Positions 29,947 through 64,000 of a stretch of DNA of 64,000 nt are shown here, piece after piece; positions within the stretch are counted from its first letter, which is position 1; each line of letters starts with the position of its first letter. The notes beneath the pieces are model-generated. The model had not been told where the DNA came from and made no database searches. It worked only from the letters and a program-made list of their open reading frames with translations. Made by a program: the position numbers and the translations under genes. Where the stretch lies: the NCBI RefSeq assembly GCF_003790525.1, contig NZ_CP033635.1; one strand, 5' to 3'. Origin of the DNA: Escherichia coli (GTDB taxonomy: Bacteria; Pseudomonadota; Gammaproteobacteria; Enterobacterales; Enterobacteriaceae).

Positions 29947-30912
29947 TTATTTTTCCGCACTACGCAGGGATATTTCACCGCCCATCCAGGGTTTTATTAT
30001 TCCATCCTGCTCAAGCAATAAAGCGCCCTGTTTGTCTATTCCACGTGAAATGCCAAATATTTCTTTATCACCAATGATAAGTTTCACTGGGCGATTAATA
30101 AAATTATCCAGCTTTTCCCAGCGCGAAAGATAAGGTGCCAATCCTTCTTGCTCGAAGAGTTCCAGCGCCGCGCGTAATTCACGTATGAGCATGGCCGCCA
30201 ACGTATTACGATCGAGATTGATTCCCGCTTCCTGCAGCGTGATCCACCCTTGATTAACGACACTCTCTTCAACACGACGCATTGCCATGTTGATCCCGGC
30301 TCCAATGACTATTTGCGCCGCATCGCCGGTTTTGCCAGTTAGCTCCACAAGAATGCCTGCCAGCTTGCGATCCTGCAAATAGAGGTCATTAGGCCATTTA
30401 ACACGAACTTTATCTGCACCCAGCTTGCGTAATACTTCCGCCATCACGATACCGATAACCAGACTTAAACCAATCGCCGCCGCCGGGCCTTGTTCCAGAC
30501 GCCAGAACATCGACAAATATAAGTTTGCGCCAAAAGGCGAAAACCATTTCCGACCCCGGCGACCACGGCCAGCCTGCTGGTATTCTGCAACACAGGCATC
30601 GCCCGATTTAAGCTCTCCGATACGATCAAGAAGGTACTGATTCGTGGAGTCAATAACGGGCAGCACAGTTACACTACCGCCATCCAGCTGACCCAATATC
30701 TGTTCAGCATTAAGTAACTGGATAGGCTCAGGCAGGCTGTATCCTTTACCCGGAACGGTAAAGACATCAACGCCCCAGTCACGCAGTGTCTGAATGTGTT
30801 TATTAATAGCCGCCCGGCTCATTCCTAACGTTTCACCCAACTGCTCACCAGAGTGAAATTCGCCATTCGCTAACAGCGCGATTAATTTCAGCGGAACGGT
30901 ATTATCCTTCAT
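29947..30912 (-). CDS. birA: Bifunctional biotin-[acetyl-CoA-carboxylase] ligase / bio operon repressor BirA
   Basis: 321 aa ORF with N-terminal HTH and biotin-ligase GRGRRGR motif. Confidence 0.96.
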
Positions 30913-53181: not shown

Positions 53182-54915
53182 ATGCATTCCACAGAAGTCC
53201 AGGCTAAACCCCTTTTTAGCTGGAAAGCCCTGGGTTGGGCACTGCTCTACTTTTGGTTTTTCTCTACTCTGCTACAGGCCATTATTTACATCAGTGGTTA
53301 TAGTGGCACTAACGGCATTCGCGACTCGCTGTTATTCAGTTCGCTGTGGTTGATCCCGGTATTCCTCTTTCCGAAGCGGATCAAAATTATTGCCGCAGTG
53401 ATCGGCGTGGTGCTATGGGCGGCCTCTCTGGCGGCGCTGTGCTACTACGTCATCTACGGTCAGGAGTTCTCGCAGAGCGTTCTGTTTGTGATGTTCGAAA
53501 CCAACACCAACGAAGCTAGCGAGTATTTAAGCCAGTATTTCAGCCTGAAAATTGTGCTTATCGCGCTGGCCTATACGGCGGTGGCAGTTCTGCTGTGGAC
53601 ACGCCTGCGCCCGGTCTATATTCCAAAGCCGTGGCGTTATGTTGTCTCTTTTGCCCTGCTTTATGGCTTGATTCTGCATCCGATCGCCATGAACACCATC
53701 ATCAAAGGCAAACCGATTGAAAAAACGCTGGATAGTCTGGCATCGCGAATGGAACCCGCAGCACCATGGCAATTTATTTCCGGCTACTACCAGTACCGCC
53801 AGCAACTTAACTCGCTGACCAAATTACTCAACGAAAACAATGCGCTGCCGCCGCTGGCTAATTTCAAAGATGAATCGGGTAACGAACCGCGCACCTTAGT
53901 GCTGGTGATTGGCGAGTCGACCCAGCGTGGACGCATGAGTCTGTACGGTTATCCGCGTGAAACCACGCCGGAGCTGGATGCGCTGCATAAAACCGATCCG
54001 AATCTGACCGTGTTTAATAACGTGGTGACGTCTCGTCCGTACACCATTGAAATCCTGCAACAGGCGCTGACCTTTGCCAATGAAAAGAACCCGGATCTGT
54101 ATCTGACGCAGCCGTCGCTGATGAACATGATGAAACAGGCGGGTTATAAAACCTTCTGGATCACCAACCAGCAGACGATGACCGCCCGCAATACCATGCT
54201 GACGGTATTTTCGCGCCAGACCGACAAGCAGTACTACATGAACCAGCAACGTACACAGAGTGCGCGTGAATACGACACTAACGTGCTGAAGCCGTTCCAG
54301 GAAGTGCTGAAGGACCCTGCGCCGAAGAAACTGATCATCGTTCATCTGCTGGGTACGCATATCAAATACAAATACCGCTACCCGGAAAATCAGGGCAAGT
54401 TTGATGGCAATACCGATCATGTCCCGCCGGGGTTAAACGCGGAAGAGCTGGAGTCATATAACGATTATGACAACGCTAACCTGTATAACGATCATGTGGT
54501 TGCCAGCCTGATTAAAGACTTTAAAGCGGCAGACCCGAACGGATTCCTGGTTTACTTCTCTGACCACGGTGAAGAGGTTTACGACACGCCGCCGCATAAA
54601 ACCCAGGGGCGTAATGAGGACAACCCGACGCGCCACATGTACACCATTCCGTTCCTGCTGTGGACGTCGGAAAAATGGCAAGCGACTCATCCGCGTGATT
54701 TCTCACAGGATGTTGATCGTAAATACAGCCTGGCGGAATTGATCCACACCTGGTCAGATTTAGCGGGCTTATCTTACGACGGTTACGACCCAACCCGTTC
54801 AGTGGTGAATCCGCAGTTCAAAGAAACTACCCGCTGGATTGGTAACCCGTACAAGAAAAACGCGCTGATCGATTACGACACGCTGCCGTATGGCGACCAG
54901 GTAGGTAATCAGTAA
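53182..54915 (+). CDS. eptC: Phosphoethanolamine transferase EptC (YijP)
   Basis: Start placed at MHSTEVQAKPLFSWKALGWALLYFWFF (577 aa); N-terminal TM helices plus sulfatase-like periplasmic domain. Confidence 0.93.
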   Translation: MHSTEVQAKPLFSWKALGWALLYFWFFSTLLQAIIYISGYSGTNGIRDSLLFSSLWLIPVFLFPKRIKIIAAVIGVVLWAASLAALCYYVIYGQEFSQSVLFVMFETNTNEASEYLSQYFSLKIVLIALAYTAVAVLLWTRLRPVYIPKPWRYVVSFALLYGLILHPIAMNTIIKGKPIEKTLDSLASRMEPAAPWQFISGYYQYRQQLNSLTKLLNENNALPPLANFKDESGNEPRTLVLVIGESTQRGRMSLYGYPRETTPELDALHKTDPNLTVFNNVVTSRPYTIEILQQALTFANEKNPDLYLTQPSLMNMMKQAGYKTFWITNQQTMTARNTMLTVFSRQTDKQYYMNQQRTQSAREYDTNVLKPFQEVLKDPAPKKLIIVHLLGTHIKYKYRYPENQGKFDGNTDHVPPGLNAEELESYNDYDNANLYNDHVVASLIKDFKAADPNGFLVYFSDHGEEVYDTPPHKTQGRNEDNPTRHMYTIPFLLWTSEKWQATHPRDFSQDVDRKYSLAELIHTWSDLAGLSYDGYDPTRSVVNPQFKETTRWIGNPYKKNALIDYDTLPYGDQVGNQ

Positions 54916-54989
54916 ATGACCTTTGTATCGCGTCTGGCGCTATTTGCCGGATGCGATACTGTCGCAATGTTTACATCGAACTCCCCTCA

Positions 54990-55017
54990 GGCCACACTTT
55001 TCAGGTGGCCTTTTTTC
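54990..55017 (+). terminator. eptC rho-independent terminator
   Basis: GGCCACACTTTTCAGGTGGCCTTTTTTC. Confidence 0.8.
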
Positions 55018-55063
55018 ATAATGCCAGTTACTGTTTTCCCGTCTACATACCTAAGGGAATAAC

Positions 55064-55915
55064 ATGTATCACGACGTCAGCTATCTGCTCTCCCGCCTGA
55101 TCAACGGCCCGCTGTCCCTGCGCCAGATTTACTTTGCCAGCAGTAACGGCCCGGTGCCCGATCTTGCGTATCAGGTCGATTTTCCACGACTGGAAATTGT
55201 GCTGGAAGGTGAGTTTGTTGATACCGGCGCTGGAGCAACGTTAGTTCCCGGCGATGTGCTGTACGTTCCCGCTGGTGGCTGGAATTTTCCACAATGGCAA
55301 GCCCCCGCCACTACCTTTAGCGTGCTGTTTGGCAAACAGCAACTCGGCTTCAGCGTCGTGCAATGGGATGGCAAACAATATCAAAATCTGGCGAAGCAAC
55401 ACGTCGCCCGACGCGGCCCGCGCATTGGTTCTTTTCTGCTACAAACGCTCAATGAAATGCAAATGCAGCCGCAGGAGCAGCAAACGGCAAGGCTTATCGT
55501 CGCCAGCCTGCTTAGCCACTGCCGCGATTTGCTCGGCAGCCAAATCCAGACCGCCTCACGTAGCCAGGCTCTATTCGAAGCTATTCGCGATTATATCGAC
55601 GAACGCTATGCCTCCGCGCTTACCCGCGAATCTGTCGCACAGGCATTCTATATTTCGCCAAATTACCTCTCGCACCTGTTTCAAAAAACGGGGGCCATTG
55701 GTTTTAACGAATACCTGAATCACACGCGACTGGAGCACGCTAAGACGTTATTGAAAGGCTATGACCTGAAGGTAAAAGAAGTGGCGCACGCCTGCGGCTT
55801 TGTCGACAGCAACTACTTCTGCCGTCTGTTTCGTAAAAATACCGAACGCTCACCGTCGGAATATCGTCGGCAGTACCACAGCCAACTGACAGAAAAACCG
55901 ACTACTCCAGAATAA
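55064..55915 (+). CDS. yijO: AraC/XylS-family transcriptional regulator YijO (function not established)
   Basis: 283 aa ORF with C-terminal AraC-type HTH (...NYFCRLFRKNTERSPSEYRR). Confidence 0.88.
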   Translation: MYHDVSYLLSRLINGPLSLRQIYFASSNGPVPDLAYQVDFPRLEIVLEGEFVDTGAGATLVPGDVLYVPAGGWNFPQWQAPATTFSVLFGKQQLGFSVVQWDGKQYQNLAKQHVARRGPRIGSFLLQTLNEMQMQPQEQQTARLIVASLLSHCRDLLGSQIQTASRSQALFEAIRDYIDERYASALTRESVAQAFYISPNYLSHLFQKTGAIGFNEYLNHTRLEHAKTLLKGYDLKVKEVAHACGFVDSNYFCRLFRKNTERSPSEYRRQYHSQLTEKPTTPE

Positions 55916-56243
55916 GATGGGTTTGCTGCGGCGCAGAAAGCACTTTGCGTACTGCGCTCATCACCCGCTGCGGCTCACGCAGGAAAGCGTAGATGCTGCA
56001 TTGCACGTAGCGGCAATGTTCAAATCGCTCGGCACCGGCAAGCTCGATATCCGTAATCAACAGAGCAACATCCGCCCGACGGATATCCTCGTCCGCTAAA
56101 CGATTCTCCGTTCCCAGCGCGCCCTGAGTTTCAATGCTGACGCCCCACTTCTCTAACAGGCACAACTTTTCCAGCCGTTCCGCCGCCATATAAGTATGCG
56201 CCACGCCGCTGACGCAGGCGGTTACTGCCACCAGGTATGCCAT
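55902..56243 (-). CDS. frwD: PTS fructose-like EIIB component FrwD
   Basis: Start placed at MAYLVAVTACVSGVAHTYMAAERLEK (113 aa); phosphorylatable Cys motif of EIIB(Fru) family; paralog of FrwB. Confidence 0.9.
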   Translation of the reverse strand: MAYLVAVTACVSGVAHTYMAAERLEKLCLLEKWGVSIETQGALGTENRLADEDIRRADVALLITDIELAGAERFEHCRYVQCSIYAFLREPQRVMSAVRKVLSAPQQTHLILE

Positions 56244-56244
56244 T

Positions 56245-57123
56245 TTAACCTCCCACGGTAACCTGAAATCCGGCCCGCTCTGCCATTTCACGCATCGTTG
56301 CCACATCGGCTGACGACGGCGCAGACACCTCTTTCATCGACCATGTTTTCCCCAGCAGGCGGTATTTCGGTTCGCCGTACTGATGAAACGGTAACAGATG
56401 GATCTGCCTGATATTCAGCGGGATCAGCACGTCCAGCGCCTGCTGCATATTCTCCCGGCTGAGCGTGAAACCAGGGATCAGCGGTAAACGCGGGATCACG
56501 TTGACGCCCTCACTCACCAGCAAACGCAGATTCTCCAGCACGCGTGGCAGGTTCATCTTCACCACATCCCGCGCCTGAGTCGCGTCCATAATTTTTAAAT
56601 CGAACAACACTTCATCGCACAATTTCGCCAGCGGTAACAGCTTGCTGGCTGGCGCGTCTCCGGCAGTTTCGATGGCGCATGACACACCCCACAACCGCAG
56701 CCGCTGTAAAAAAAGAGTAGCAAACTCCGCCTGCATTAACACTTCGCCGCCAGAAAGCGTGACGCCGCCGCCGGACGTGCGAAAGAAAATGTCATCTTTC
56801 ATCACTTCCCGTTCCAGAGCGTCAAGGCTGATATCGCGACCAATCCGTTCAAACGCACCGGAGGGGCATTCATCCGCATCACGCAAACATTTCGCACAGT
56901 GCAGACATTTCGCCTCTCTGCGTACAGTCTGGATTTTGCCGGAGATCGACTCCGGATTAGCACACCACGGGCAAAGATGTGGACAGCCTTTAAAAAAGAC
57001 CACCGTACGAATGCCCTCGCCGTCATTCAGTGAATAACGCTGAATGTTGAAAATGCGCGCCACATCATTGCGGCGCGTTTCCACAACGTTACAGCTGATG
57101 CGCTGTCCGGCGGATGATGTCAT
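56245..57123 (-). CDS. pflC: Glycyl-radical-enzyme activating enzyme (radical SAM) PflC
   Basis: Start placed at MTSSAGQRISCNVVETRRNDVARIFNIQRYSLNDGEGIRTVVFFKGCPHLCPWCANPE (292 aa); CxxxCxxC cluster. Confidence 0.93.
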   Translation of the reverse strand: MTSSAGQRISCNVVETRRNDVARIFNIQRYSLNDGEGIRTVVFFKGCPHLCPWCANPESISGKIQTVRREAKCLHCAKCLRDADECPSGAFERIGRDISLDALEREVMKDDIFFRTSGGGVTLSGGEVLMQAEFATLFLQRLRLWGVSCAIETAGDAPASKLLPLAKLCDEVLFDLKIMDATQARDVVKMNLPRVLENLRLLVSEGVNVIPRLPLIPGFTLSRENMQQALDVLIPLNIRQIHLLPFHQYGEPKYRLLGKTWSMKEVSAPSSADVATMREMAERAGFQVTVGG

Positions 57124-59386
57124 CCTGGATCTCCTTCGACAATTCGACAAAGAAGGCGCTGTATCCGGCAACGCGCACCACCAGCCCGGCATAATCTTGT
57201 GGGCGCTGTTGCGCTTCCCGCAACGTGTCGGCGTTCACCACGTTAAACTGAATATGCTGCAACTTAAGCTGGGTAAACGCCCGTAAGAAGTCGGCCAGTT
57301 TGCGTAATCCCGCTTCACCTTCCAGGGTCGCCGGAGTGAATTTCACGTTCAGCAACGTACCGTTAGACAGCAGCGTATTATCGAGCTTACTGACTGACTT
57401 CAGTACCGCCGTTGGCCCTTGTGCGTCCTGGCCCAGCATGGGTGACAAGCCGCCGTCTGCCAGCTGTTCTCCGGCAAAACGACCGTCTGGCGTCGCGCCA
57501 ACCACCGATCCCAACGGGACGTGAGCAGAAACGGTATACGATCCCGGCGTGAAGTAGCCGCCGCGCGGGTTCTGGTATTTTTCCACTTCTTTGCAGTAGT
57601 GGCGTAACAGTTCGGCGCTGATGTTATCCACCTCGTCGATATCGTTACCGTATTTCTCGAAGCGGTTAATTAAGCGAGCACGGACTTTTTCGCCTTCTGG
57701 CGTTGCGAAGTTGGCTTTTAATACCGACAGCAATTCGTCAAAACTTAAACGCTGTTGCTCAAAAACCATACCTTTCAACGCATGGAGAGAATCGCTCAGG
57801 TTGGCGATACCGATCCCCTGTACGCCGGAGAAGTTATAACGCGCACCGCCATCGGTAATATCGCGGCCTTTTTCCAGACAATCGCTGATAAACGATGAGA
57901 GCAGCGGTACAGGTGCCCAGTCACGGTGACCGATATCGCAAATATTGCTGCCCTCAACCATCAGGGTGATGTAGTGGCTGATCTTGGCGCGGATCTGCTC
58001 CAGTAAACCTTCATAAGTCAGCGCAGCATTGCCTTCATTTTCATGCAGGCAGATTTCCATCACTTTCAGCAGATTAAACATCGCGATGTCATGCAAGCCG
58101 TAGGTTCTGCCGGGAATAGATAATTCCACACAGCCCACTACGGAATAGTCGCGTGCATCTTCCAGCGAAACGCCACGGTTGAGGAACGCTGGCACCACTA
58201 CTTCATCGTTAAAGATTTGCGGAATACCGGTGCCGAGGCGAATGGTTTCGGCGGTTTTCATCAGGAACGGCGTGTCGATCAAGGCGTTAGTGCGCACCCC
58301 CAGGTTCGGTTGCGGTAATTGCACGCTTTGATAGGCGTCAAGGCAAAGGAACGAAAGCACGTTCACCGCGCTACGTCCGTTCTCGGTTAACCCGCCGAGC
58401 AGTGCGGTATAGCCGGTCGGGAAACCGGCGAAATAACGCGCGCTACTGGTGGAGCGCAACAGCACGATGTCGTTGCATTTCACCCATAAAGATTCGAGCA
58501 GTTCTTTCAGGAACGCCGGATCTTCGCCCTGGGTTAATGATGCCTGATAGAACGGCAACATATACTGGTCGAAGCGCCCTAAAGACAGCGAACTGGCGTT
58601 GGATTCGTATTGCAGAATGATGTTCATGTACCAGAATAACTGGCACGCCTGCCAGAACGTCTGCGGCTTATGTTCGGCGTTATGGCGGGAGATCTCCGCA
58701 ATAGTCAGCAGTTCTTCGCGACGCTGGCCATCAGTGCAGCTTGCCGCCATCGTTTCCGCCAGTTCGGCGTAACGCAAAATATGTTTCTGCGAGGCTTCCA
58801 GCAGTAACAGCGCTGCCTGATAAAAGTGATTCTCCGGCTGTTGCTGACAATGTTGCTGCATCTGTGCCACCAGCTCCCCCAGCCCGTGATTCAGCAGGCG
58901 CGGGTAATCAATAATAATGTGCCCCTGGCCTTTATCCGTCTGGTTGATGCTGAAAATCTGCGTGCTGGTCGCGGCTTTTACTTCATCCGTCATCTGCCCG
59001 TTAATGAAATCTTTCATCGAACGTTTTTCCCAGTACGGGAACAACTCTTCGCGGTAGATACGTTTATCTTCTTCGCTGATAGCAAAGCGGTCCTGCGGAC
59101 GCGTCGGGAATTGATCCAGCTCTTTCAGCAGCCAGTAAGGGTCCATTTCCGGCGACATAATCCCGGCGCGTGGTTTTACGGTGCGGTTACCGGCAATCAG
59201 TTCTTCATCACGAATCGAAATTTCAACGTGTTCAAGGATATACGCTGTTGCTTTCGCCCGGCGCAATATCACCGGTTCGCCTTCGGTTTGCCGATGGCTG
59301 GCGGTATAAAGCAGCGCCCGCTCCAGCGAGATTTCACGGGTATTGGCAAACAGTGCAGTTTTGAGGCGAGAGATACGATTCGTCAT
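57089..59386 (-). CDS. pflD: Glycyl radical enzyme PflD (pyruvate formate-lyase homolog; substrate unknown)
   Basis: 765 aa ORF; C-terminal glycyl-radical motif region (...RVAGYSAFFVEL...); 35-nt overlap with pflC. Confidence 0.93.
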   Translation of the reverse strand: MTNRISRLKTALFANTREISLERALLYTASHRQTEGEPVILRRAKATAYILEHVEISIRDEELIAGNRTVKPRAGIMSPEMDPYWLLKELDQFPTRPQDRFAISEEDKRIYREELFPYWEKRSMKDFINGQMTDEVKAATSTQIFSINQTDKGQGHIIIDYPRLLNHGLGELVAQMQQHCQQQPENHFYQAALLLLEASQKHILRYAELAETMAASCTDGQRREELLTIAEISRHNAEHKPQTFWQACQLFWYMNIILQYESNASSLSLGRFDQYMLPFYQASLTQGEDPAFLKELLESLWVKCNDIVLLRSTSSARYFAGFPTGYTALLGGLTENGRSAVNVLSFLCLDAYQSVQLPQPNLGVRTNALIDTPFLMKTAETIRLGTGIPQIFNDEVVVPAFLNRGVSLEDARDYSVVGCVELSIPGRTYGLHDIAMFNLLKVMEICLHENEGNAALTYEGLLEQIRAKISHYITLMVEGSNICDIGHRDWAPVPLLSSFISDCLEKGRDITDGGARYNFSGVQGIGIANLSDSLHALKGMVFEQQRLSFDELLSVLKANFATPEGEKVRARLINRFEKYGNDIDEVDNISAELLRHYCKEVEKYQNPRGGYFTPGSYTVSAHVPLGSVVGATPDGRFAGEQLADGGLSPMLGQDAQGPTAVLKSVSKLDNTLLSNGTLLNVKFTPATLEGEAGLRKLADFLRAFTQLKLQHIQFNVVNADTLREAQQRPQDYAGLVVRVAGYSAFFVELSKEIQDDIIRRTAHQL

Positions 59387-59436
59387 GAGGAACTCCTGTG
59401 GGAAAGCGAACCCGCCCTTACGGGCGGGATAAGAAC

Positions 59437-59757
59437 TTAAGCGGTTTGTGCCAGGTGAGCTTCAATTTTGCTCATAATGGCATCAGCGCGTTTTACCGCG
59501 TCGCTGATGTTGACGCGCACGATGGTCTTGCCAGCAAAACGCTCTTCAAACTTGATGCCGATATCTTTGGTCAGAATCACCATATCGGCGCTCGCCACGT
59601 CTTCCGCAGTCAGTTCATTTTCCAGACCAATCGAGCCCTGGGTTTCTACTTTCACTTCCCAGCCTTTCGCTTTCGCGGCACTTTCCAGCGCCTCTGCCGC
59701 CATATAGGTATGGGCAACACCAGATGGACACGCGGTTACTGCAATAATTTTCGTCAT
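59437..59757 (-). CDS. frwB: PTS fructose-like EIIB component FrwB
   Basis: 106 aa MTKIIAVTACPSGVAHTYMAAEALE... Confidence 0.92.
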   Translation of the reverse strand: MTKIIAVTACPSGVAHTYMAAEALESAAKAKGWEVKVETQGSIGLENELTAEDVASADMVILTKDIGIKFEERFAGKTIVRVNISDAVKRADAIMSKIEAHLAQTA

Positions 59758-59771
59758 GGCTCGTTCCTCAA

Positions 59772-60851
59772 TTAATTAATTTCAAAATCCAAATCCAGGT
59801 CGTCTTCTTTTTCATCAGTCGAAGACCCATTTTTACGCGCCAGACTTTTCAGCACGTTCACACAAACAGCCGTCACCACTGCTCCGACAGCCACTGCTGC
59901 GATATAACCCAGCTTGCCTTCAACCACCGGCAGCACAATCAGACCACCCCAGCCTGCATAGCACTGCGCACCGACCAGCGCCGCAGTTACTGCACCACAA
60001 ACTGAACCGATCATGATGGAAGGAATAACACGCAGCGGATCGGCAGCGGCGAAAGGAATCGCCCCTTCAGTAACCCCAACACAGCCCATCACCAGTGCCG
60101 CCTTGCCGGTTTCGCGCTCTTCTGCGGAGAAATTTTTACGACCAATCAGCGTCGCCAGCCCCATCCCCAGCGGTGGAACACAAATCCCAACAGCGGCAAT
60201 AGCCACCACGGTATAAACACCCTGAGCAACGCAAATCAGCATGAAGGCATAGGCCACTTTGTTAACCGGGCCGCCCATATCGAACGCCAGCATCAGACCC
60301 ATGATCACCGCCAGCATAACAATGCTGCCCTGCTGCATCCCCTGAAGCCACTGAGTCAGGCTGTTGGTCAACGCCCCTACAGGCTCGCCCAGCCCCCACA
60401 TCATGACGCCAGCGGTAATCAGTGTGCCGACGATAGGAATGATGAAGATTGGCATCACCGAGCGCAGAACTTTATGCACCGGAATTTTCTTCAGGTAATG
60501 CACCACGATGCCGCCGATAATCCCGGCGATCAGTGCACCAAAGAAGCCCGCACCAAAGCTGTTACCAACCCAGGCACCGATAGCGCACGGAGCCAGCGCA
60601 GAGCGTTCTGCAATGGAATAACCGATGTAAGCGGCGAGGAAAGGCACCATCAGCGTCAAACCTGCAACGCCGATATCAAACAGTTTTTTCAGATTCGGAT
60701 CGGCGACGGCATCCGGCACTGCGCCTTTGCCATACAACATGACGGAAACCGCCAGCAAAATACCGCCCGATACCACGAAGGGAATCATGTGTGAAACGCC
60801 CGTCATTAAATGCTGACGAGTATTTTTCAGGATCTGCACCAACTCATTCAT
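59772..60851 (-). CDS. frwC: PTS fructose-like EIIC permease FrwC
   Basis: 359 aa polytopic membrane ORF of the EIIC(Fru) family. Confidence 0.92.
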   Translation of the reverse strand: MNELVQILKNTRQHLMTGVSHMIPFVVSGGILLAVSVMLYGKGAVPDAVADPNLKKLFDIGVAGLTLMVPFLAAYIGYSIAERSALAPCAIGAWVGNSFGAGFFGALIAGIIGGIVVHYLKKIPVHKVLRSVMPIFIIPIVGTLITAGVMMWGLGEPVGALTNSLTQWLQGMQQGSIVMLAVIMGLMLAFDMGGPVNKVAYAFMLICVAQGVYTVVAIAAVGICVPPLGMGLATLIGRKNFSAEERETGKAALVMGCVGVTEGAIPFAAADPLRVIPSIMIGSVCGAVTAALVGAQCYAGWGGLIVLPVVEGKLGYIAAVAVGAVVTAVCVNVLKSLARKNGSSTDEKEDDLDLDFEIN

Positions 60852-61159
60852 AAGCTGCTCCCGGGCTTGCGAAAGCCCATGTCCATATTTTTGATGGAAG
60901 AAACAATAGGCAATCGCAGGCGGAGCAAACAGTGGATAAAAAGGCCATTTACTGGACTTTTGTAATATCAGTACAAAAATGCGATCCGCCTCATAACTTG
61001 CGATAACCCGGAAGCATGCCGCAAAACGGCGTCTTGTGAGACGCGTCGCAAATTGGCGGTTACATTACATTTGTCCAGCTTTTGGCAGATTTGTCACATG
61101 GCAGGCCGTTGCCGTGCGCTCTTATCCTGTAAACAGAAAACCGTACCGGGAGAGAGGCA

Positions 61160-63661
61160 ATGGCCCTGATTGTGGAATTTATTTGTGAGCTACCTAACGG
61201 CGTACATGCGCGTCCGGCAAGCCACGTTGAAACGCTGTGTAATACTTTTTCATCACAAATTGAGTGGCATAACCTGCGCACTGACCGCAAGGGCAACGCC
61301 AAAAGCGCCCTTGCGCTGATTGGCACCGATACGCTGGTGGGCGATAACTGCCAGTTACTGATTTCCGGGGCCGACGAACAGGAAGCGCACCAGCGTTTAA
61401 GCCAATGGCTGCGCGATGAATTCCCCCACTGCGACGCACCGCTGGCGGAAGTAAAATCTGACGAACTGGAACCACTGCCGGTTTCACTGACCAATCTGAA
61501 TCCGCAAATTATCCGTGCCCGCACCGTGTGCAGCGGTAGCGCAGGCGGCATTCTGACGCCGATCTCTTCTTTAGATCTCAATGCGCTGGGTAATCTTCCC
61601 GCAGCCAAAGGCGTTGACGCCGAACAATCCGCACTGGAAAACGGTCTGACGCTGGTACTGAAAAACATAGAGTTTCGTCTGCTGGATAGCGACGGTGCTA
61701 CCAGCGCGATTCTGGAAGCGCACCGATCCCTGGCTGGCGATACTTCCCTGCGCGAACATTTACTGGCAGGTGTCAGCGCCGGATTAAGCTGCGCCGAAGC
61801 GATTGTTGCCAGTGCGAATCACTTTTGCGAAGAGTTCGCCCGTTCCAGCAGCAGCTACCTGCAAGAACGTGCCCTGGACGTACGCGACGTCTGCTTCCAG
61901 TTACTCCAGCAAATCTACGGTGAGCAACGCTTCCCGGCACCGGGCAAACTGACGCAGCCCGCCATTTGTATGGCTGATGAACTGACCCCCAGCCAGTTCC
62001 TCGAACTGGATAAAAATCACCTCAAAGGATTGTTGCTCAAAAGCGGCGGCACCACCTCACATACGGTGATCCTTGCCCGTTCGTTCAACATTCCGACGCT
62101 GGTTGGTGTGGATATTGATGCCCTCACTCCGTGGCAGCATCAAACGATTTATATCGACGGCAACGCTGGGGCGATTGTGGTTGAGCCAGGGGAATCCGTG
62201 GCCCGTTATTATCAGCAAGAAGCCCGCGTACAGGACGCTCTGCGTGAGCAACAGCGTGTCTGGCTGACCCAACAAGCCCGTACCGCTGACGGTATCCGCA
62301 TTGAAATTGCTGCTAACATCGCTCACTCCGTGGAAGCGCAGGCCGCATTCGGCAATGGTGCGGAAGGCGTTGGTTTATTCCGCACTGAAATGCTCTATAT
62401 GGATCGCACCAGCGCACCGGGCGAAAGCGAGCTGTACAACATTTTTTGTCAGGCGCTGGAGTCCGCCAACGGACGCAGCATTATTGTGCGCACTATGGAT
62501 ATTGGCGGTGACAAACCCGTTGATTATCTGAACATTCCCGCAGAGGCAAACCCGTTCCTCGGTTATCGCGCCGTGCGTATTTATGAAGAGTACGCGTCGT
62601 TATTTACCACACAACTACGGTCGATTCTCCGTGCCTCCGCTCACGGCAGCCTGAAAATCATGATCCCGATGATCTCCTCAATGGAAGAGATCTTATGGGT
62701 AAAAGAAAAACTGGCAGAAGCCAAACAGCAACTACGTAACGAACACATTCCGTTTGATGAGAAGATCCAGCTCGGCATTATGCTGGAAGTGCCGTCGGTG
62801 ATGTTCATCATCGATCAATGCTGCGAAGAGATTGATTTCTTTAGTATCGGTAGTAATGACCTGACGCAATATCTGCTGGCAGTGGATCGCGATAACGCTA
62901 AGGTTACTCGTCACTATAACAGCCTGAATCCGGCCTTCTTGCGGGCGCTCGATTACGCCGTGCAGGCGGTGCATCGCCAGGGCAAATGGATTGGTCTGTG
63001 CGGTGAACTGGGAGCGAAAGGTTCCGTGCTGCCTTTGCTGGTCGGTTTAGGGCTGGATGAACTCAGCATGAGCGCACCATCAATTCCGGCGGCGAAAGCG
63101 CGGATGGCGCAACTTGATAGCCGTGAGTGCCGCCAGTTGCTCAACCAGGCAATGGCCTGCCGTACGTCGCTGGAAGTGGAACACCTGCTGGCGCAATTCC
63201 GCATGACCCAACAAGACGCACCGCTGGTCACCGCCGAGTGCATCACACTGGAAAGCGACTGGCGCAGCAAAGAAGAAGTGCTCAAAGGCATGACCGATAA
63301 CCTGCTGCTGGCGGGCCGCTGCCGCTATCCGCGTAAACTGGAAGCCGACTTGTGGGCGCGCGAGGCCGTTTTCTCTACCGGTCTGGGCTTTAGTTTCGCC
63401 ATTCCCCACAGCAAATCAGAACACATTGAGCAATCCACCATCAGCGTGGCGCGTCTGGCAGCGCCGGTGCGCTGGGGCGATGATGAAGCGCAATTCATCA
63501 TTATGTTAACCCTGAACAAACATGCTGCGGGCGATCAGCACATGCGCATTTTCTCGCGCCTCGCTCGTCGCATCATGCACGAAGAATTCCGTAACGCGCT
63601 GGTTAACGCCGCCTCTGCCGACGCTATCGCCAGCCTGCTGCAACATGAACTGGAACTGTAA
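61160..63661 (+). CDS. ptsA: Multiphosphoryl transfer protein PtsA/FryA (HPr-like, Enzyme I-like and EIIA(Fru)-like domains)
   Basis: 833 aa ORF: N-terminal HPr-like His (GVHARPAS), central PEP-utilising Enzyme I domain, C-terminal EIIA-like domain. Confidence 0.92.
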
Positions 63662-63672
63662 AAGGAAACATC

Positions 63673-64000
63673 ATGGAACTGTATCTGGACACCGCTAACG
63701 TCGCAGAAGTCGAACGTCTGGCACGCATATTCCCGATTGCCGGGGTGACAACTAACCCGAGCATTATCGCTGCCAGCAAGGAGTCCATCTGGGAAGTGCT
63801 GCCGCGTCTGCAAAAAGCGATTGGTGATGAGGGTATTTTGTTTGCTCAGACCATGAGTCGTGACGCGCAGGGTATGGTGGAAGAAGCGAAGCGCCTGCGC
63901 GACGCCATTCCGGGCATTGTGGTGAAAATCCCGGTAACTTCCGAAGGTCTTGCCGCCATAAAAATGCTGAAAAAAGAGGGTATTACTACACTTGGCACCG
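63673..64000 (+). CDS. fsaB: Fructose-6-phosphate aldolase 2 (TalC), 5' part; 3' end lies outside the window
   Basis: [109 protein letters not shown], transaldolase-like fold. Confidence 0.93.

Follow-up and report, generated by a model that had tools for sequence, protein, structure and literature searches.

At one end of a 64,000-nucleotide stretch of Escherichia coli DNA (contig NZ_CP033635.1 of RefSeq assembly GCF_003790525.1; hereafter the window) lies the frw/pflDC/ptsA-fsaB cluster, which joins components of a phosphotransferase system (PTS) to a glycyl radical enzyme, PflD, and its activase, and whose function is considered here. Genes were called from the open reading frame (ORF) listing and the RefSeq annotation of the SMS-3-5 record, to which positions 55902–64000 are 100% identical by megablast. 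NCBIfam profiles were used for gene identities and agreed with each of those from frwD to fsaB:

55064–55915, plus strand: yijO, AraC-family transcription factor (RefSeq annotation)
55902–56243, minus strand: frwD, second PTS EIIB of the fructose family (NF007747, 224 bits against a cutoff of 153)
56245–57123, minus strand: pflC, radical-SAM activase of PflD (TIGR02494, 260 bits)
57089–59386, minus strand: pflD, glycyl radical enzyme, 99% identical to PDB 8yjo
59437–59757, minus strand: frwB, PTS EIIB of the fructose family (NF007783, 210 bits)
59772–60851, minus strand: frwC, PTS EIIC membrane permease of the fructose family (NF007787, 720 bits; TIGR01427, 302 bits)
61160–63661, plus strand: ptsA, fused HPr-EI-EIIA(Fru) phosphorelay protein (domain matches)
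63673–64000, plus strand: fsaB, fructose-6-phosphate aldolase 2, first 109 codons, the rest lying beyond the window end

The minus-strand order frwC-frwB-pflD-pflC-frwD, the divergent ptsA-fsaB pair and the fusion of HPr, EI and EIIA in PtsA had been described in an initial annotation of this DNA. ORFs, RefSeq and NCBIfam bear that anatomy out, the NCBIfam matches placing HPr at 10–85, EI at 180–685 and EIIA-Fru at 690–830. The adjacent yijO, which the initial annotation did not mention, is convergent with frwD, and the 3' ends of the two genes share 14 nt (55902–55915). Downstream of fsaB, just beyond the window end, the SMS-3-5 annotation places gldA. Of 5426 complete E. coli genomes, 5425 gave a match to the frw/pflDC/ptsA locus, and in 5393 the match covered 80% of it or more; this near-universal match excludes a chance pattern and marks a real conserved feature. 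The frw/pflDC/ptsA-fsaB stretch is an ordinary, universally conserved E. coli locus.

PflD aligns with PDB entry 8yjo ('Probable dehydratase PflD', E. coli) over all 765 residues at 99% identity, and none of the seven substitutions relative to the crystallised K-12 protein falls in the Gly or Cys loops. These are strain-level substitutions only, the window being SMS-3-5-like, and gene order and content are identical to those of the K-12 PflD/PflC-FsaB-GldA locus (Ma et al. 2024; 8yjo). Identity to 8yjo and the same genomic context identify the protein, by sequence, as the ortholog of characterised K-12 PflD. The review PMC12441222 gives the findings of Ma et al. (J Am Chem Soc 2024;146:26187) as follows: 1,5-anhydroglucitol and 1,5-anhydromannitol are broken down anaerobically by gut bacteria; PflD converts 1,5-anhydromannitol-6-phosphate to 1-deoxyfructose-6-phosphate by glycyl-radical chemistry, the paralog YbiW converts 1,5-anhydroglucitol-6-phosphate to the same product, and both anhydro-polyol routes begin with PTS phosphorylation to the 6-phosphate. 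A further paper also credits Ma et al. (2024) for YbiW and PflD, and the PDB holds structures of YbiW as well (8id7 and 8yjn). PflD is thus no longer an orphan, the 2024 study and a solved structure having assigned it to anaerobic 1,5-anhydromannitol breakdown. The function of the cluster has been known since 2024, and the statement in the initial annotation that neither the sugar nor the PflD reaction is established is outdated for the enzyme, given 8yjo and the account of Ma et al. (2024) in PMC12441222. What that annotation had named as decisive, a published PflD substrate together with Frw specificity, is now largely in print: the substrate is, and Frw is still 'putative' in a 2025 paper.

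A comparison of the PflD active site with characterised glycyl radical enzymes, which had been suggested with the initial annotation, returned a loop of the eliminase type. The glycine loop reads RVAG741Y and the Cys loop GC419VE421, the latter aligning with GCVE of the glycerol dehydratase 1r8w and GCIE of YbiW, and both loops are invariant in 80 of 80 orthologs. The ACCVS of PflB aligns opposite GCVEL of PflD, in which the vicinal Cys-Cys pair is missing. PflD scored 1347 bits on TIGR01774 (PFL2/glycerol dehydratase family), against a cutoff of 678.2, and 120.8 bits on TIGR01255 (PFL equivalog), below the cutoff of 994.2. Its RVxG loop, its score above the family cutoff and the adjacent activase place PflD, on profile and motif evidence, in the PFL2/glycerol dehydratase subfamily, and the single Cys plus Glu of its GCxE loop is that expected of glycyl-radical 1,2-eliminases/dehydratases. 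Both features tested for pyruvate formate-lyase (EC 2.3.1.54), the Cys-Cys pair and a TIGR01255 score above cutoff, are absent. Even so, RefSeq and release 20 of NCBIfam (June 2026, NF007437) still call PflD 'formate C-acetyltransferase', and nearly all named homologs carry that name too. On NF007437 PflD scored 1725 bits, covering 1–765 of the 765-position model, and because the match runs end to end the model is apparently one of PflD orthologs with a legacy name. For PflD, 'formate C-acetyltransferase' is a legacy misnomer. A 543-amino-acid protein encoded on a metagenomic contig (L005:2514–4145), beside a DeoR-family regulator, is 55% identical to PflD but has no C-terminal glycine-radical domain; its gene is probably truncated or in decay.

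The activase PflC carries CX3CX2C at residues 47–54 and auxiliary Cys residues at 73, 76, 79 and 86, conserved across orthologs; pflC and pflD overlap by 35 nt, an offset that is unchanged in nearly all loci.

Among characterised enzymes, the B12-independent glycerol dehydratase of Clostridium butyricum (1r8w) belongs to the same PFL2 family as PflD (E-value 5e-193) and has the same Cys-x-Glu loop. Propanediol dehydratase, CutC and HypD are related glycyl-radical 1,2-eliminases, and a radical 1,2-elimination of the same type would apply to PflD. The leaving group in PflD would be the ring oxygen of a sugar phosphate, whereas eliminases of the glycerol dehydratase type release water or an amine, and, unlike these relatives, PflD does not lie in a microcompartment locus. 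PflB/PflA share with PflD/PflC the glycyl-radical fold, the RVxGY loop and radical-SAM activation, but PflB is only 25% identical to PflD and relies on its Cys418-Cys419 pair for C-C cleavage and acyl transfer. The closest parallel within the genome is the YbiW-YbiY/FsaA system: YbiW, 39% identical to PflD, shares its GCxE and RVAGY motifs and likewise has an activase of its own and an Fsa aldolase in the neighbourhood, and according to PMC12441222 its substrate is the C2 epimer of that of PflD, with 1-deoxyfructose-6-phosphate as the common product. In K-12, ybiW-ybiY is divergent from fsaA, and a glycyl radical enzyme, its activase and an Fsa aldolase are thereby grouped twice per genome. 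Unlike that of pflD, the ybiW neighbourhood lacks a dedicated PTS and a PtsA-like phosphorelay protein, and an AraC-family regulator does not adjoin it.

The PTS components appear intact. Profile searches gave 481 bits for the EI domain of PtsA and showed FrwC to be related also to the IIC domain of MngA. Cys10 of FrwB is invariant in 74 of 74 orthologs, as is Cys10 of FrwD (AVTACVSGVAH) in 74 orthologs, and PtsA retains His16 (HPr), His301 (EI) and His750 (EIIA) in 71 of 71. With profile scores above cutoff and phospho-acceptor residues in place, Frw and PtsA are assigned to the fructose family of the PTS, an assignment that describes the predicted proteins. Mean cross-species identity is 90% for FrwB versus 69% for FrwD; these two EIIB paralogs both retain the phospho-Cys10, and in Gilliamella and Necropsobacter frwD travels with yijO. 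The 'fructose-like permease' goes back to an in-silico proposal by Reizer et al. (1995), as cited in PMC6643234, and FrwC is still labelled 'PTS fructose transporter subunit EIIC' in RefSeq/NCBIfam. For Frw specificity, as for YijO function, the literature yielded nothing beyond 'putative' or 'fructose-like' labels.

Gene neighbourhoods were then compared across species. An initial homolog search returned close relatives only (81–99% identical, the named ones all Enterobacterales); in a search of 50%-identity representatives the PflD clade formed one cluster, and the nearest-outgroup contigs (P0122 and P0123) were too short or degraded to inform. One genome per species was scanned with the PflD alignment, giving 199 loci, of which the best 80 (74–99% identity) were kept; these span Enterobacterales, Gilliamella, Zophobihabitans, Necropsobacter and Vibrio, and the E. 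coli proteins were mapped onto them. Counts refer to the 64 species-level pflD loci with full 10-kb flanks:

PflC: 63 of 64 loci
FrwB, FrwC, FrwD and PtsA: 59 of 64 loci each
FsaB: 54 of 64 loci
GldA: 36 of 64 loci
YijO-like AraC-family gene, within 10 kb of pflD: 64 of 64 loci

The gene set occurs in 12 arrangements from Escherichia to Vibrio, Gilliamella and Necropsobacter (in Gilliamella, yijO-frwD lies upstream of ptsA and fsaB follows pflC). The initial annotation had proposed such a comparison for Enterobacterales, and its outcome, a set kept despite rearrangement, is good evidence of functional coupling and supports Frw as supplier of the PflD substrate and FsaB as consumer of its product. 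That Frw stays linked to PflD in 59 of the 64 loci further argues that it carries the precursor of the PflD substrate rather than fructose. From this gene linkage we infer that Frw is the PTS that phosphorylates anhydromannitol.

Several loci depart from the E. coli gene set. Six, from the Kluyvera group and Edwardsiella piscicida (L036, L037, L038, L040, L055 and L083), contain pflD-pflC, an AraC-family gene and one copy, upstream of pflD, of the regulatory box described below, and lack the Frw PTS, ptsA, fsaB and gldA in the vicinity; the pflDC module of Kluyvera ascorbata (L036) adjoins hyp and fhlA-like hydrogenase (maturation) genes. A PhyH-family protein of about 255 amino acids, with the fold of Fe/2-oxoglutarate dioxygenases, is encoded beside the yijO-like gene in 14 of the 80 loci (L049:14498–15265, L084:16271–17029 and 12 more), from Klebsiella/Raoultella, Yersinia, Kluyvera and Vibrio variabilis. 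Copies from Yersinia and Vibrio share 67% identity. In 13 of these 14 loci fsaB is not adjacent, and the E. coli window has no PhyH-family gene; such a protein sits oddly with a strictly anaerobic pathway. In two Vibrio loci (L084:13192–14049 and L085:13141–13989) a gene for an RmlD-like NAD-dependent reductase/epimerase is flanked by pflC and by the gene of a diverged aldolase of the Fsa type, which shares 40% identity with FsaB. There, a different entry substrate, for example 1,5-anhydrofructose, could feed the pathway.

The FsaB fragment, 109 of the 220 residues of the protein, matched the TalC/MipB model TIGR00875 over residues 1–109 (E-value 8e-50) with 169 bits against a cutoff of 246; the full-length gene is annotated fsa in the identical SMS-3-5 record (L001), where GldA is annotated as L-1,2-propanediol dehydrogenase. 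In the 2024 study, FsaA and FsaB reportedly cleave 1-deoxyfructose-6-phosphate to glyceraldehyde-3-phosphate and hydroxyacetone, which GldA reportedly reduces to 1,2-propanediol. Hydroxyacetone is a known donor substrate of fructose-6-phosphate aldolase, and what fsaA and fsaB do physiologically was still called 'enigmatic' in 2020 (PMC7767278). The genes ptsA-fsaB-gldA form one operon (PMC6643234), and fsaB and related genes show very low laboratory expression (PMC7767278; PMC6643234).

The two operons diverge from the 308-bp frwC/ptsA spacer (60852–61159), which is mirror-symmetric: two CRP-like sites are flanked by inverted 17-nt boxes. Its elements are as follows:

60903–60908, minus strand: TATTGT, putative -10 of the frwC promoter, inferred, in an ACAATAG block near-invariant across 13 Enterobacterales
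60947–60963, minus strand: left 17-nt box ACAAAAGTCCAGTAAAT, facing frwC, a predicted conserved operator box
60980–60995: CRP-like site TGCGATCCGCCTCATA, conserved in the footprint, an exact match to a listed chromatin immunoprecipitation (ChIP) site
61035–61050: CRP-like site TGTGAGACGCGTCGCA, matching 9/10 consensus positions, the sole 9/10 match in the 64-kb window
61067–61083, plus strand: right 17-nt box ACATTTGTCCAGCTTTT, facing ptsA, a predicted conserved operator box
61123–61128, plus strand: TATCCT, putative -10 of the ptsA promoter, inferred, in a conserved TTATcCTG block

A phylogenetic footprint of 13 Enterobacterales showed conservation of the first two CRP-like sites, two long blocks and the two putative -10 elements. 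Three CRP-like sites of at least 8/10 lie in the spacer, compared with about 0.1 expected from the window background. In ETEC, a CRP ChIP peak at ptsA/frwC has TGCGATCCGCCTCATA as its reported site (PMC4287617), and the TGTGA half-site of TGTGAGACGCGTCGCA is conserved in 12 of the 13 species. The third match, at 61083–61098, was rejected as a CRP site and treated as part of the operator, since it runs into the operator block on the right, in the downstream half that is conserved. Each block has the 17-nt box as its core and a weaker repeat about 20 nt downstream of it, and the two spacer halves, each read in its direction of transcription, align gap-free in one register. Relative to the inferred transcription starts, which are predicted close to 60896 on the minus strand and 61135 on the plus strand, the boxes lie at about -71 to -33 and the CRP-like sites are centred at about -92. 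A consensus sigma-70 promoter was not found in the spacer.

A stricter pattern, ATTACA-N3-GTCCAG-N4-TGGC, had missed distant taxa, and a relaxed consensus, ACAWWWRTCCAGYWWWT, was derived from inverted-repeat analysis of Vibrio and Gilliamella spacers. With at most one mismatch, it was scanned over the window and the 80 loci (1.65 Mb). In the window it matched the two spacer copies and one further, mismatched site at 30100 only. In the 80 loci it gave 139 matches in the spacer and 12 elsewhere, all of them cluster-associated: two on a truncated contig, within this same spacer, six preceding pflD in the loci of the Kluyvera group and E. piscicida that lack the PTS, and four upstream of the yijO-adjacent PhyH-family gene (two Yersinia, the Enterobacterales MAG L061 and Vibrio variabilis). 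One box per strand was present in 68 of 71 PTS-containing loci, including those of Vibrio, Gilliamella and Necropsobacter.

YijO itself has a C-terminal double helix-turn-helix of the AraC/XylS type (residues 192–270; HTH_18, 77 bits; HTH_AraC, 64 bits), and its N-terminal 190 amino acids had no Pfam match. The conserved mirrored boxes, with their direct-repeat layout, co-occur with the YijO-like gene, and the 17-nt box is probably the operator of this AraC-family protein. At the araBAD promoter, AraC I1-I2 half-sites are combined with a CRP site. The frwC/ptsA spacer resembles that arrangement in its tandem direct-repeat boxes and upstream CRP-like site and in having an AraC-family gene always nearby; unlike araBAD, it is predicted to carry the module in duplicate, as a mirror image serving two divergent operons. 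The simplest reading, a new prediction, is that YijO and CRP co-activate both operons.

Other sequence features of the locus were minor. No terminator was found between yijO and frwD, whose 14-nt overlap is apparently kept in Citrobacter, Enterobacter and relatives, judging from match coordinates. The 49-nt frwB-pflD gap contains a perfect 7-bp all-GC hairpin, CCCGCCC GTAA GGGCGGG (59411–59428, minus strand); it was flagged by a terminator scan and is probably not a terminator, with an unremarkable folding energy of z = -1.0 relative to shuffles and no T-tract. An Rfam search of 54900–64000 gave no match at E-values up to 1.

Taken together, these observations make it likely, in our judgement, that the locus encodes a self-contained pathway by which 1,5-anhydro-D-mannitol is catabolised anaerobically, corresponding to the PflD arm of 'radical-mediated glycolysis' (Ma et al. 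2024). In such a pathway, phosphate would pass from phosphoenolpyruvate to His301 (EI), His16 (HPr) and His750 (EIIA) of PtsA, as the intact invariant sites suggest, and on to Cys10 of FrwB and/or FrwD and the polyol crossing FrwC, yielding 1,5-anhydromannitol-6-phosphate. PflC would place the radical on Gly741 of PflD, as family knowledge and the motifs imply, and PflD would open the ring to give 1-deoxyfructose-6-phosphate, the net reaction published for it. A plausible mechanism, in the style of diol dehydratases, has Cys419 taking the C2 hydrogen, Glu421 deprotonating the hydroxyl at C2 and the ring opening by elimination at its C1-O bond; the C2 stereocentre would thereby be lost, which would explain why YbiW, specialised for the C2 epimer, forms the same product. 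FsaB would then split 1-deoxyfructose-6-phosphate into glyceraldehyde-3-phosphate and hydroxyacetone, and GldA would reduce the latter to 1,2-propanediol, steps that the 2024 study reportedly describes and that gene linkage supports here. Both operons would be switched on by CRP and YijO through the mirrored conserved boxes.

Several points weigh against this pathway. A September 2025 paper still describes FrwBC/PtsA as 'putative' and 'fructose-like', and the accessible literature contains no experiment showing transport of anhydromannitol by FrwC. Support here for the FsaB and GldA steps, and for the role of Frw, comes from gene linkage. Five full-flank loci (four of the Kluyvera group and E. 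piscicida) have pflDC and the regulator with no adjacent PTS, which implies that PflD function does not require the PTS. The spacer has no FNR-like site of at least 7/10, though the pathway is strictly anaerobic, and on the regulatory side the transcription starts are inferred and YijO binding to the box is predicted.

The historical annotation, an anaerobic fructose PTS with a second pyruvate formate-lyase ('formate acetyltransferase 2') and its activase, draws on the persisting RefSeq/NCBIfam names of PflD and FrwC and on the sequence-based permease proposal of Reizer et al. (1995), quoted in PMC6643234. The fructose assignment is, however, wholly in silico, and the enzyme has GCVE and no Cys-Cys pair, 25% identity to PflB and 121 bits against the TIGR01255 cutoff of 994; its structure is named a dehydratase, and the reaction published for it is the ring opening of anhydromannitol-6-phosphate. 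The formate-lyase/fructose annotation is already largely refuted, and we regard it as very improbable. Still harder to credit is a cryptic, decaying remnant with no present function in E. coli, to which the very low laboratory expression of fsaB and related genes (PMC7767278; PMC6643234) and the lack of a consensus sigma-70 promoter might point. A weak core promoter is, however, what an activator-dependent operon is expected to have; the locus is matched in all but one of the complete E. coli genomes, all ORFs are intact, every catalytic residue is invariant across 70 to 80 species and conservation of the cis-regulatory boxes extends as far as Vibrio. The conservation data already contradict decay.

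A further alternative, unlikely but deserving more weight than either of these, accepts PflD as published and has Frw importing another natural substrate, either a mannose-configured or anhydro-sugar or a precursor such as 1,5-anhydrofructose that is converted later, with anhydromannitol as a laboratory surrogate. Direct Frw transport data were not found in the accessible literature, the two EIIB paralogs evolve at unequal rates, and the additional genes within the cluster (RmlD-like in two Vibrio loci, PhyH-family in 14 of 80) hint at additional or alternative substrates. Against it, frwCB and pflDC form one operon and are linked in 59 of 64 loci, which argues that the product of the PTS is the substrate of PflD, and the review PMC12441222 has the pathway starting with PTS phosphorylation of the polyol.

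Returning to the anhydromannitol pathway, we give about an even chance to a joint reading of its enzymes and regulation. YijO would be a dedicated activator that responds to anhydromannitol or its 6-phosphate and acts with CRP through a mirror-duplicated, araBAD-like module. In the predicted module, each of two boxes with the consensus ACAWWWRTCCAGYWWWT is followed by a weaker repeat and preceded, some 20 bp upstream, by a CRP site. Box, regulator and pflDC would constitute an ancient invariant core, and the Frw PTS, FsaB, GldA and, in some lineages, the PhyH-family and RmlD-like proteins exchangeable accessories. Such accessory genes may be a sign of other natural substrates, one example being 1,5-anhydrofructose produced by glucan lyase of algae or fungi.

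The pathway would give E. coli and its relatives an oxygen-sensitive fermentation of 1,5-anhydro-sugars to glycolytic intermediates and 1,2-propanediol, and it would explain the long-puzzling FsaA and FsaB aldolases. Annotation lags behind: the names 'formate C-acetyltransferase' and 'fructose' PTS would mislead metabolic models. The predicted mirrored operator of YijO and CRP is a small, testable addition which, if true, would leave E. coli with one fewer uncharacterised gene.

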